The notes under the pieces: generated by a model | What the model was told of the DNA's origin: nothing | What the model saw: only the letters and a program-made list of their open reading frames with translations | Database searches by the model: none | Shown: piece by piece, positions 3,174 through 7,368 of the stretch | Layout of the letters: the number at the start of each line of letters is the position of its first letter | Numbering within the stretch: position 1 is the stretch's first letter | Translations under genes and position numbers: made by a program | Assembly: GCA_965602015.1 (NCBI GenBank) | Contig: OZ271918.1 | Span: 3,712,001-3,776,000 of the forward strand | Length of the DNA: 64,000 bases | DNA from: Salinispira sp. | GTDB taxonomy: Bacteria; Spirochaetota; Spirochaetia; DSM-27196; Salinispiraceae | Direction: 5' to 3'

Positions 3174-5744
3174 TTATTGGGCGACGATATTCACCAGCTT
3201 GTTGGGCACCGCAATAACTTTGCGGATGGTCTTTCCCTCGGTCAGTTCCCGTATGCGCTCGTTCTCCAGGGCGAGTTTCTCCAGCTCATCCTTCGGCGTG
3301 TCGGCAGGTACCGTCAGTTTGGCCCGGACCTTGCCGTTGACCTGGAGAACCAGCTCGATTTCATCGTCTTTGGTCAGCGCCTCATCGTATTCCGGCCAGC
3401 TCTCGAGAGCCGTGCTGCCGGTGCCGCCGGCCATTTCCCACAGTTCCTCGCTGAGGTGAGGCGCGTAGGGGCTCAACAGCAGGATAAACCGCTTCCATAT
3501 GTCAATATTGATGGTTTCTGCCTTGAAGGCCTCGTTGATAAAAATCATCATCTGGCTGATTGCCGTGTTGAAGTCCAGATTTTGTGTGTCCTGGCCGACT
3601 TTTTTGATGGTTTTGTGGAGGATTTTTACCAGATCCGCATTCGGTTCAGCGCTATCCATGGGTTTGTGGGCGGTTCTCCAGACCTTGTCGAGAAAACGGT
3701 GTATGCCGATGAGGCCCTGGGTCGACCAGGGTTTTGACTGCTCCAACGGTCCCATAAACATTTCGTAGAGGCGCATGGAGTCGGCGCCGAACTCCCGAAT
3801 GATGTCGTCGGGGTTCACCACGTTTTTAAGGCTCTTGGACATTTTGGCGATGACCTGCGTCACCGGCTTTCCGGTTGCTTTTTCAATGTATTTTCCCTGG
3901 GATACTTCTTCCACCTCATCAGTGGGTACCAGGGTGGAATCATCCCGCTGGTATGCATGAGAGGTAATCATTCCCTGATTCACCAGCCGGGAAAAGGGCT
4001 CCTTTGTATTGACCACTCCGATATCGTAGAGGACCTTGTGCCAAAATCGGGCGTACAGCAGATGCAAGACCGCGTGTTCGGTTCCTCCGACATAGAGATC
4101 CACCGGCATCCAGTAGCGGATTTTTTCCGGGTCGGCCAGGGCTGCGCTATTGCGGGGGTCGATGTAGCGCAGGTAGTACCAGCAGCTGCCGGCCCATTGG
4201 GGCATGGTATTGGTTTCCCGTACACCTTTCTCACCGGGTCTTCCGGGCACCTCGGCTTCAACCCAGCTACGCACATTCACCAGAGGGCTTTCGCCGGTTC
4301 CCGAGGGTTTGTAGCTTTCGACCTCAGGCAGGGTGAGGGGCAGTTCGGTTTCGGGAATGGGTATGAACTCGCCCTCGGCGTCCTGTACCAGGGGAATGGG
4401 CTCACCCCAATAGCGCTGACGGCTGAAAATCCAGTCTCTGAGCTTGTAATTTACCGCACGCTCGCCCCGGCCCTGTTTCTCGAGCCAATCGATAATGGTC
4501 GATTTGGCCTCGTCGGTCGGAAGACCGGTAATAAGCCCCGAGTTCACTGAAATGCCTTTTTCGGTGAAAACCTCGCTCATGTTCGGGTGAAAGTTGCTTA
4601 ATTCTACGGAGCTGGTGTCGCTGATATCCGCGGGATCCGCGACAACCCTGATAATCGGAAGCTGGTATTTTGTCGCGAATTCCCAGTCTCTCTCATCGTG
4701 TCCCGGCACGGCCATAATGGCGCCGGTGCCGTAACTTATGAGGATGTAGTCGGAAATCCAAATGGGTATTTTCTGATCATTCACCGGATTGACCGCATAT
4801 GCGCCGGTGAACACCCCGGTTTTGTCTTTGGCGAGATCGGTGCGCTCCAGGTCGCTTTTGAGGGATGATTTGCGGATGTACTCTTCAACGGCGCTGCGCT
4901 GATCATCGGTGGTGATTTCGTGAACCAGCGAGTGCTCGGGAGCCATCACCATGTAGGTGGCACCGAAGAGGGTATCCGGCCGGGTGGTGTACACCTCAAG
5001 GATGTCATCCCGCCCGTCCAGGGAAAATTTGACGTTTGCCCCTTCACTGCGGCCGATCCAGTTGCGCTGCATGGCCTTGAGGGATTCGGTCCAGTCGAGG
5101 TCTTCCAGGTCTGCCAAAAGCCGCTCGGCGTACTCGGTTATTTTGAGCATCCATTGGCGCAGCGGGCGCCGCTCAACGGGGTGCATCCCCCGCTCGGAGC
5201 GGGGACCGTCGGGGGTGGTTATTACCTCTTCGTTGGCGAGAACCGTGCCGAGCTTTTCGCAATACCACATGGGTATTTCATCGACGTAGGCCAGACCACG
5301 CTCGTACAGTTTGAGAAAAATCCATTGAGTCCACTTGTAATATTCTTCCGTGTGGGTGGCGATTTCCCGGTCCCAATCGTAGCTGAAGCCCAGTTGCTTG
5401 AGCTGACGGCGGAAGGTGTTGATGTTGTTTTCCGTTGAGGTTCGCGGGTGGGTTCCGGTTTGTATGGCGTAGGTCTCCGCCGCCAGACCAAAGCTGTCGA
5501 AACCCATGGGGTGGAGAACATTGTGACCCGTCATGCGCAGGTAGCGGCAGAAAATATCCGTCGCCACATATCCTTCGGGATGTCCGACGTGAAGTCCGCT
5601 TCCCGAAGGATAGGGGAACATGTCCAGAACGTATTTGCGTTTTTCCGGCGGAAAATTCGGGTCTTCGCTGACCGCGAAGGTTTTATGATCTTCCCAGTAC
5701 TTCTGCCATTTTTTTTCAATTTCCGCGAAGGGGTACTTTTTCAC
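3174..5744 (-). CDS. leuS: Leucine--tRNA ligase
   Basis: [14 protein letters not shown] (HIGH-like), [21 protein letters not shown]-terminal [11 protein letters not shown] start with GAGGA SD. Confidence 0.98.
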
Positions 5745-5836
5745 CGCTGATTCCTCGTACGGACCGCCGTCGGGACCGCGGTGCCGAATATCAATTAGAC
5801 GAAATATAATGAGCGGCTATAGTAGCGCAAGAGTTT

Positions 5837-6004
5837 AAAAAATAAAACCCCCGGGTAAGGAGGTGAAACCCGGGGGCGCACTGTCGTTCCGGGGCCAGGC
5901 GCCTAAGATCGCCGAAATTGCGGATGACAGAAAGAAGCATGTGATGTCAGCAAATGCCGTTTGCTCGTTGATGACATTTTTACATGGCCGCCCTATCAGG
6001 GCGG
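5837..6004 (-). ncRNA. Candidate ~165-nt structured small RNA ending in a terminator whose loop is anti-SD (UUCACCUCCUU)
   Basis: Minus-strand TTGACT(6034-6039)-17 nt-TAGGTT(6011-6016) promoter. Four consecutive stems. Terminator stem 5848-5856/5868-5876 plus U tract. No convincing ORF. Confidence 0.55.
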
Positions 6005-6096
6005 AGCAGTAACCTAAACCATCGGCGAATAATAGTCAACATGCTTGGCGAGTAAATTTCTATGTTGTGATGATTTATTTCGGCTTCTTCCCCAGA

Positions 6097-7368
6097 CTAG
6101 CGGGAGCCATTCTCCGCCTCCGGGTGGTAGGCTGCGGGCCGGTATTTCATGAGCTGAACTGCCTTGCTGCCCATTGCCTGTATGATGAAGGTGCCTATTC
6201 GCGTCTCGATTTTTTGGCCCTTCACCGGAAGCCCGGTAAGCTGTTCGAGCACGTAGCCTCCGACGGTTTCGGAGTTCCTGTCGTGTTCGATTTCCGTACC
6301 CAGCACGTCTTCGAGAATGTAAATCGGCGTATCGCCCTGGATGCTGTACCAGCCTTCCTGGCTGTTTTTGAATATCTTTGCGCCGTCGGGTTCTTCATCT
6401 TCATCGTAAATTTCTCCGATGATTTCCTCCACCAGATCTTCCATGGTTACGATGCCCGCCAGGCCTCCGTACTCGTCGAGGATAATTGCCAGGTTGAGCC
6501 GTTCCTCCTTGAGTCGGCGAAAGACCCGGTAGACCTTCCAGGTTTCCGGGAAATATACCGGCGGGAGCATGACGTCCGCCAGGCAGCCCTCGGTTTCGCC
6601 CCGGGCGGCCATGCGGGTCAGATCCTTTTCGAGAACCACACCGACGATATTTTCCGGATCATCCTGGTACACCGGAACCCTCGAGTGCCCCTGGTCCGCA
6701 ATAAGCGGCAGGGCTTCGTCGATCTGGGTTTTCTGTTCGAGGCTAAAAACGTCCTTCCGGTGGGTCATGATTGCGTGGACCGTCACATCACTGAAGCGGA
6801 ATACCGATTTAACCATGCGGGATTTGTAGTTCTCCAGAATGCCTATGTTCTCGGCGTGTTTTACCATGTGGAGGATTCCGTCCAGGGTGAAATAGTCCCG
6901 GGCCTTGGAGCGTCCGAAGCGGCTGATAAGCCGGGAGAAGGCATTGATGAACACGATGACCGGAAAAAACAGGAAGGACAGGCTCTTGATAATGCCTGCG
7001 GTCTGCAGGCAAATCCACTCGTTGTTGCGGATTGCGAACTGCTTGGGGAGCACTTCGCCGAATATCAGAATAGCCATGGTGAGGACGCCGGTGACAATGG
7101 CAAGGGGTATGTTGCCGAAGAGTCTGATGGATAGTTCCGACGTAATAACCGATATTGCCACGTTTACCAGGTTGTTTCCGATCAGAATGGTGGTCAGCAG
7201 CTTGTCGGGGTGCTTGTGCAGGTTCTCTACTATTTTGCCTCGGCGGGGATAGTGAACCTTGGTATGTTCTATCTGCATTAATGAGAGACTGGTAAATGCG
7301 GTTTCGCTTGAACTGAAAAAAGCGGAGAGAAAAAGCAGGAAAATCAGACCGGCCAGGCTGGCGATCAT
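6097..7368 (-). CDS. HlyC/CorC (CNNM/DUF21-CBS-CBS-CorC) family membrane protein
   Basis: FFSSSETAFTS, LIGNNLVN, FGEVLPK, HSRVPVY, DEYGGLAGIVTMEDLVEEIIGEI. Confidence 0.93.
   Translation of the reverse strand: MIASLAGLIFLLFLSAFFSSSETAFTSLSLMQIEHTKVHYPRRGKIVENLHKHPDKLLTTILIGNNLVNVAISVITSELSIRLFGNIPLAIVTGVLTMAILIFGEVLPKQFAIRNNEWICLQTAGIIKSLSFLFFPVIVFINAFSRLISRFGRSKARDYFTLDGILHMVKHAENIGILENYKSRMVKSVFRFSDVTVHAIMTHRKDVFSLEQKTQIDEALPLIADQGHSRVPVYQDDPENIVGVVLEKDLTRMAARGETEGCLADVMLPPVYFPETWKVYRVFRRLKEERLNLAIILDEYGGLAGIVTMEDLVEEIIGEIYDEDEEPDGAKIFKNSQEGWYSIQGDTPIYILEDVLGTEIEHDRNSETVGGYVLEQLTGLPVKGQKIETRIGTFIIQAMGSKAVQLMKYRPAAYHPEAENGSR

Follow-up and report, generated by a model that had tools for sequence, protein, structure and literature searches.

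A predicted small RNA with an anti-Shine-Dalgarno terminator loop between corC and leuS of Salinispira, and its terminator family in spirochaetes

The RNA described here resembles the LhrC small RNAs (sRNAs) of Listeria monocytogenes, RepG of Helicobacter pylori and the cuckoo RNAs of Alphaproteobacteria, and is a member of none of them. LhrC1-5 are multicopy sRNAs described as carrying redundant CU-rich motifs at three kinds of site (a hairpin loop, a single strand and the terminator loop), which pair with the Shine-Dalgarno (SD) region of their targets and block translation; in that account Hfq is not needed and envelope stress induces the RNAs (PMC4132741). As in LhrC, many members of the family reported below join a single-stranded (A)CCUCCUUUU to the motif in the terminator loop. 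The LhrC motif, however, is CUCCC/UCCC rather than ACCUCCUU, the phylum is another one, there is no relation in sequence or in Rfam, and the copy in the window has one full motif only. RepG is a further precedent for a seed located in a terminator loop, as its published description has it (PMC8295292), but according to the same source its pairing partner is a G-repeat within a 5' UTR and not a canonical SD site, and it is a single-copy RNA of one species; its sequence is unrelated. The cuckoo RNAs (the CcsR / RSs0680 group) are described as two to four hairpins side by side that each display CCUCCUCCC in the loop (PMC4615179). The likeness is that, on that description, a single anti-SD-like loop motif, invariant across members, defines the family, with stems free to vary and architectures that differ. 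In contrast to the cuckoo RNAs, the RNAs here belong to another phylum, and their motif, ACCUCCUU, has a single place in the terminator loop, to which some members add one single-stranded copy. With this single motif hairpin and with Rfam negative both at the gathering score and at E ≤ 10, membership in the cuckoo RNAs was rejected. A comparison of a different kind is offered by MicA, RybB and MicL of enterobacteria, which are sigma-E-dependent sRNAs (PMC4102768). As described, these are the sRNA arm of an ECF response, and the likeness is that a second copy in our genome and 38 of 94 family members have an ECF-like box; they differ in being Hfq-dependent with 5' seeds, and in that the window copy has a sigma-70-type promoter.

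Held at the sequence level against the class of anti-SD sRNAs (LhrC, RepG, RsaE and the cuckoo RNAs), the leuS-linked units all have their own predicted promoter and an intrinsic terminator (6 of 6), and the SD-complementary motif is displayed unpaired in the window RNA and five homologues, in six of six minimum-energy folds. We regard the element as a new RNA family inside a known kind of regulator, with expression and targets that are predicted. It is a concrete and easily testable regulatory RNA candidate, belonging to a family that occurs in most of the genomes searched in the order and in one further family, and it adds a lineage lacking Hfq to the bacteria that place an anti-SD seed in a terminator loop. 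At 10-12 letters of the 16S tail, the predicted seed is unusually long. To our knowledge, almost no regulatory RNAs have been described from free-living spirochaetes, and a full-text literature search found no description of an RNA of this type in spirochaetes.

The corC-leuS spacer and its predicted RNA

The stretch of DNA that was analyzed, referred to as the window, comprises 64,000 nt of a Salinispira sp. genome. All features of the locus described here are on its minus strand, and are given in window positions. A corC-like gene (6097..7368; CNNM, CBS and CorC_HlyC domains in a domain search) is the upstream neighbor and leuS, encoding leucyl-tRNA synthetase (3174..5744; Pfam tRNA-synt_1_2, tRNA-synt_1 and Anticodon_1), the downstream neighbor of a spacer of 352 nt. 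The original prediction had placed in this spacer a promoter TTGACT-17-TAGGTT with a start at about 6004. The boxes were found as described and are kept in relatives: 17 nt separate the -35 box TTGACT (6034..6039), which has the corC-like stop codon 58 nt ahead of it, from the -10 box TAGGTT (6011..6016), and +1 is thereby placed near 6004. A promoter scanner did not return these boxes and gave an overlapping, weaker TTTACT-16-TATTAT at 6056-6029; conservation in relatives favors the predicted pair. With the promoter and the terminator as bounds, the predicted non-coding RNA is ~167 nt long (5838..6004).

The 174-nt stretch folded at -60.7 kcal/mol (z = -2.75), and 2 of 200 shuffles folded equally well. 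At its 5' end the hairpin CCGCCCU-GAU-AGGGCGG of 7 bp (5988..6004), which had been said to coincide with the predicted start, indeed opens there and by itself gave -12.6 kcal/mol (z -2.25). The terminator, for which 9 bp and a U tract had been claimed, also stood up well: a hairpin of 9-10 bp (5848..5876), seen on folding and matched by the covariance model described below, has the arms CCCCCGGGU (5876-5868) and ACCCGGGGG (5856-5848) around the loop UUCACCUCCUU, the U tract UUUUAUUUUUU follows (5837..5847), the z-score of the terminator alone is -3.5, and the structure is kept in relatives. The two middle domains fared less well. Their pairings, an interrupted stem CAUGU...ACAUG (5938..5986) that includes the motif CAUGUAAAAA, and a domain closed by CUGUC/GACAG (5881..5930) with the inner hairpin loop AUCUUAGG (5902..5909), were located, but with z-scores of -1.1 (not significant) and -1.0, respectively, they fold no better than shuffled sequence, and these parts of the described structure therefore lack support by energy alone. 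The motif CAUGUAAAAA (window 5976-5985) consists of an AUG directly followed by UAA, with no SD ahead, and is shared, near the RNA 5' end, by the three genomes of the window's genus and a single sister-genus genome. A 49-codon frame from 5940 was rejected as coding, as it has no SD and no ATG stands at the matching place in two same-genus homologues.

The exposed 11-nt terminator loop UUCACCUCCUU (5857..5867) is the predicted seed. Both 16S genes of the genome have the 3' end ...GGAUCACCUCCUUUCU, and the loop therefore repeats UCACCUCCUU, 10 nt of the anti-SD tail, so that the earlier equation of the loop with the 16S 3' anti-SD holds letter for letter over these 10 positions of the genome's own 16S. 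In a whole-genome scan that returned 1397 terminator-like hairpins, only 2 had CACCUCCUU in the loop; the distribution of loop sizes among these hairpins was too noisy to mark an 11-nt loop as unusual. The second such hairpin, at G000 2438976-2439010, is 1.28 Mb away from the window copy and belongs to a second copy of the RNA (G000:C1 ~2438963-2439090, minus strand; locus L242 ~1501-1625). Its loop, UUUCACCUCCUUU, has 12 letters in common with the 16S tail, with UCUCCUUUUU just upstream and TGTTAC-N17-TGTT ahead. This copy stands after a 362-residue gene without a Pfam match and converges on topA.

The original prediction had recognized no known family, and the catalogue searches agreed: Rfam 15 at the gathering score gave no match in the whole window, and there was likewise no Rfam match for 8 other loci of the anti-SD-loop terminator family. 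At E ≤ 10, positions 5700-6150 returned only two weak generic-terminator alignments and one unrelated lncRNA fragment. Anti-hemB (15.8 bits) and NsiR1 (15.3 bits) were rejected, since they align to the generic terminator only, far under their gathering scores. Two other memberships were discarded, that of the T-boxes (no match at E ≤ 10 in 5700-6150) and that of the Hfq-dependent sRNAs (no Hfq or ProQ detected in the genome).

Conservation at corC-leuS

When the spacer was compared by BLAST with 61 genomes, the source genome of the window among them and the other 60 being relatives, chiefly the terminator aligned; in one genome of the same genus the alignment covered 116 nt and extended ~55 nt further upstream. 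Conservation was also assessed by synteny in 8 genomes of the family, in all of which leuS was located independently of the loop. Six of the eight, from three genera, have a promoter, a variable body and a terminator with the ACCUCCUU loop between corC and leuS, a corC-like gene being upstream in the two other genera as it is in the window. Two genera of the family are without the element, and one of these has just ~50 nt separating corC from leuS. All six leuS-linked units have the promoter TTGACW-17/18-TAnnTT, the -10 boxes of the homologues being TAAATT, TAATTT or TATATT with unchanged spacing, and body lengths range from 170 to 300 nt. The six bodies could not be aligned with MAFFT: of 37 invariant columns, 27 are in the terminator and U tract (window-sequence positions 135-171) and 10 are scattered over the body. 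In one genus the stem is CCCCUCGGG/CCCGAGGGG in place of CCCCCGGG/CCCGGGGG, a compensatory change under an unchanged loop. The terminator loop is the best-conserved part of the RNA.

Two of the checks that had been proposed for the original prediction are addressed by these comparisons. Conservation of the loop was borne out, with the core ACCUCCUU kept in six genomes of three genera while the body diverged. Covariation was seen in part, as the terminator stem shows compensatory changes and the body was not scorable from six unalignable homologues, because full-length alignment and consensus folding failed outside the terminator. Within the window's genus, a 5' hairpin is present at the predicted start in three of three genomes with a sequence that differs among them, the motif AUGUAAAAA occurs in the same three genomes and once more in a second genus, in a single genome, and a second loop, UCUUAGG, is kept in the three on different inner stems. 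This recurrence of the 5' hairpin, AUGUAAAAA and UCUUAGG within the genus, in three sequences, is suggestive. The sister genera have a single-stranded (A/G)ACCUCCUUUUU before the terminator, which the window copy is without.

Downstream of the RNA, and outside it, the box TACTAT (5819..5824) is the -10-like element of a promoter of leuS itself. That leuS appeared to have its own promoter was part of the original prediction and is upheld by the relatives, as the -10-like GCTACTAT lies between terminator and leuS in both genera compared, and GCTACTAT or GTAGTAT is kept at this place. The leuS leader of the window's genus is ~75 nt long and contains the SD GAGGAA. In three sister genera (loci L224 ~1470-1500, L024, L025 and L223) the ATG of leuS is 7-8 nt past TACTAT/TAGTAT, with TTGACG/TTGCAC 17-18 nt upstream of that box, so placed that leuS looks leaderless there.

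The terminator family and its promoters

A strict pattern of loop and inner stem matched 20 of the 99 genomes of the order, and its reversed control matched none. In the species collection the pattern was present in 64 contigs, 39 of which have spirochaete names in their titles (among them Alkalispirochaeta, Spirochaeta, Salinispira, Sediminispirochaeta and Treponemataceae); the rest have no U tract or fall within coding sequence. We built a covariance model, R1, from 63 unique terminators. The model holds just 6 consensus pairs because MAFFT slipped the stems, and the stems of the family were assessed by reading sequences. R1 scored the window terminator at 55.9 bits (E 7e-12), and at E ≤ 0.01 matched 85 of the 99 genomes of the order, representing 24 of 26 genera. 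In an even sample of the phylum, at E ≤ 1e-5, there were matches in 10 of 151 genomes including the window's own; seven of these were in one other family, in which R1 matched 7 of 14 genomes.

The best R1 match was read in 20 further genomes, and each was a terminator hairpin (20 of 20), with CCUCCUU in the loop of 18. The stems read included CUCAGG/CCUGAG, CCCAGG/CCUGGG, CCGGAGG/CCUCCGG, GGCAGG/CCUGCC and CUGCGGGG/CCUCGCAG, and there were 68 different 5' arms in 97 unique examples. The motif is conserved while the stems supporting it vary. Many members have U for C of UCACC, or lack the A (UUUCCUCCUUU). As the family searches were keyed to the loop, its invariance among the matches is partly built in, and for this reason a second synteny test was added, which examined the sequence following msrB in another family (22 genomes). 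This sequence ended in such a terminator in 15 of the 21 genomes that were evaluable, with outer pairs that differ. Both the leuS and the msrB test are small and their genomes are mutually related. A generic search for CCGGG...CCCGG terminators found that such stems carry many other loops.

The sequence ahead of the terminators was also surveyed in the 97 examples. A masking GGAGG occurs within 80 nt upstream in one of them, and a second CCUCC within the same distance in 24 (shuffle mean 5.8, maximum 13). These upstream second motifs are SD complements, for instance GACCUCCUUUUU and CUGCCUCCAUU; the counts are descriptive and no proof of selection, because related genomes are not independent. 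In metagenomes, 93 of 120 matches were without a U tract and were rejected, most of them being one repeated gut-sample element unrelated to the window RNA. An element near-identical between gut samples and Clostridia, GCCGGGGCAATAATGGGGCGGGG-CCGGGGTTCACCTCCTTACCCGG-TCAAGGGTGCAATTCC..., has the same loop-like string without a U tract, is very widespread and has no relation to the spirochaete RNAs (L098, L104, L105 and ~70 others among the metagenome contigs; L038 and L096 among the genome contigs). Six other metagenome loci (L101, L103, L112, L170, L199 and L204) contain very short units in which a GATATTATTAAG-type -10 region is followed by ~40-50 nt that close with GCCUGACCGGG-UUUCACCUCCUU-CCCGGUCGGGC plus a U tract; these units look like minimal members of the same kind.

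Promoter types were counted in 94 family examples having 200 nt of upstream sequence. An ECF-like box, GTWAC-N14-19-TGTY, is present in 38, mostly 57-85 nt ahead of the hairpin (shuffle mean 1.8), and a sigma-70-like TTGAC-N17-19-TAnnnT, which includes the window type, in a further 14 (shuffle mean 1.0). The tighter pattern TGTWAC-N15-17-TGTT is not enriched in the window's genome, having 14 matches against 31 for the reversed control. Of the 14, one is ahead of the second RNA copy and another immediately ahead of an ECF sigma gene (176 residues, Sigma70_r2 and r4_2; G000:C1 ~2522833-2523392, minus strand; locus L279 1534-2064). Directly ahead of the ATG of this gene is TGTAAC-N17-TGTT, the same box as before the second copy. 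This suggests an ECF regulon that would take in the second copy and many relatives. Neither of the two genes that follow the sigma gene (232 and 190 residues) matches Pfam, and an anti-sigma factor might be encoded among them. The window copy, by its boxes, has a housekeeping-type (sigma-70-type) promoter and not an ECF-like box. Housekeeping and ECF-like promoters on one shared 3' module offer a way to study the rewiring of such regulators.

Proposed mode of action and rival explanations

With moderate confidence, we interpret the element as encoding a predicted trans-acting, chaperone-independent sRNA that covers SD sites. The trans-acting translational repressor of the original prediction is thereby supported to the extent that computation allows. 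The predicted unit would be transcribed as a discrete RNA from ~6004 to 5838 on the minus strand, and the exposed terminator loop UUCACCUCCUU would serve as the seed that pairs with the SD sites of mRNAs. Pairing could proceed without a chaperone, through contact of the loop with a single strand over 8-11 G/C-rich pairs, and ribosomes would be kept off the paired SD sites, the outcome being translational repression. Specificity would need the U-rich flanks and the other conserved loops, because the loop core fits any full AAGGAGGU site. Searches for Hfq (PF17209) and ProQ (PF04352) gave no match in this genome, which is 99.7% complete, while the controls were positive; CsrA is present. Helicobacter pylori, too, is not known to encode Hfq. 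By analogy, an unmasked G/C-rich motif of 8-11 nt in a large loop, on stems that change across the order, fits a class of chaperone-independent sRNAs that cover SD sites.

Other explanations of the stretch were weighed against this one. It may be the 3' UTR of corC together with its terminator, any sRNA then being derived by processing of the corC mRNA and still able to act via the loop. The first terminator-like hairpin to follow the corC stop (6097) is the one at 5876-5848, and corC is upstream in all three genera having the element; with no terminator between the corC stop and the promoter, the same sequence is therefore probably also corC 3' UTR. As the sole account of the element this is nevertheless rather unlikely, given that TTGACW-17/18-TAnnTT is kept in six of six units although their surroundings are unalignable, that a 5' hairpin lies exactly at the predicted start in three of three genomes of the window's genus, and that other family members follow unrelated genes or have boxes of their own (38 of 94 ECF-like and 14 of 94 sigma-70-like). 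We give hardly any credence to an ordinary terminator that resembles the anti-SD by chance and belongs to no RNA gene. The middle of the RNA, which is not clearly structured, is what such a terminator has in its favor, but by our estimate a 9-mer in a loop of ~11 nt would be expected in ~0.02 of the 1397 terminators and two were seen, and the loop is kept order-wide on many stems, whereas the reversed pattern was found in 0 of 99 genomes.

It is very unlikely that the element serves leuS in cis, as a T-box-like or other leader or attenuator whose terminator would control read-through. Such a role would account for the position of the element, always directly upstream of leuS in three genera, and it agrees with a weak -35 region of leuS that overlaps the terminator U tract in the window's genus, and with the presence of the leucine codons CUU and UUA in that genus's conserved loop AUCUUAGG. 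Yet neither a T-box nor any other leuS leader in Rfam matched 5700-6150 even at E ≤ 10, a result that also bears on the original prediction, for which a match to a known cis-regulator of leuS had been named as a refuting outcome. GCCCCGG could alternatively pair with the 3' arm, but this would leave the terminator closed and one same-genus homologue lacks the pairing, and reading of the same-genus homologues found no conserved alternative structure able to open it. Moreover, loci unrelated to leuS have the same terminator module, the second copy in this genome being one of them; in two genera of the family leuS is present and the element is not; and the -10 box of leuS itself is kept downstream of the terminator. 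The loop could also be a decoy for a protein that recognizes the 16S 3' tail (a maturation or decay nuclease, a tail-binding ribosomal protein or factor, or a toxin) rather than an antisense seed. The part identical to the 16S tail measures 10 nt in the window copy and 12 nt in the second one, and most known SD-targeting sRNAs have C-rich seeds of 4-6 nt, which are shorter than this. We consider a decoy unlikely, however, as the upstream second motifs are also SD complements, no candidate binding protein is linked to the loci, and the invariant part is the SD complement CCUCCUU and not the 16S tail, because many members vary the C of UCACC to U or drop the A.

For the favored interpretation, a trans-acting sRNA that covers SD sites, target prediction had been proposed as a check, and it yielded nothing specific: in a duplex scan of 11,346 candidate starts the top ranks were mostly inside genes. 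The complement of the 11-nt loop, with up to 2 mismatches, has 28 matches in the window against 14.9 expected, none of which stands out at a start codon, and the only exact match in the window is the opposite strand of the loop itself. The genome has 70 AAGGAGGU sites, 16 of them 2-10 nt before the start codon of a frame of at least 50 codons; among these 16, seven are at one repeated 123-codon gene and three have signal-peptide-like starts. The neighboring genes corC (GGAGG) and leuS (GAGGAA) allow just 4-5 nt of pairing with the loop. A repeated element with a 10-nt match proved to sit inside a small frame. In a broader and doubtful extension of the proposal, the RNAs would be mimics of the 16S tail that compete with ribosomes for all strong SD sites, in an order-wide, chaperone-free system driven in part by an ECF stress sigma factor and in part, as in the window copy, by the housekeeping machinery, and translation would be shifted to mRNAs that have weak SD sites or are leaderless, such as sister-genus leuS.

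Elsewhere in the genome, a strong terminator with a C-rich loop, CCGCGGCCC-UCCCUCCC-GGGCCGCGG followed by U9, is located at G000:C1 3517775-3517800 on the minus strand, and may be part of a further SD-complementary RNA.
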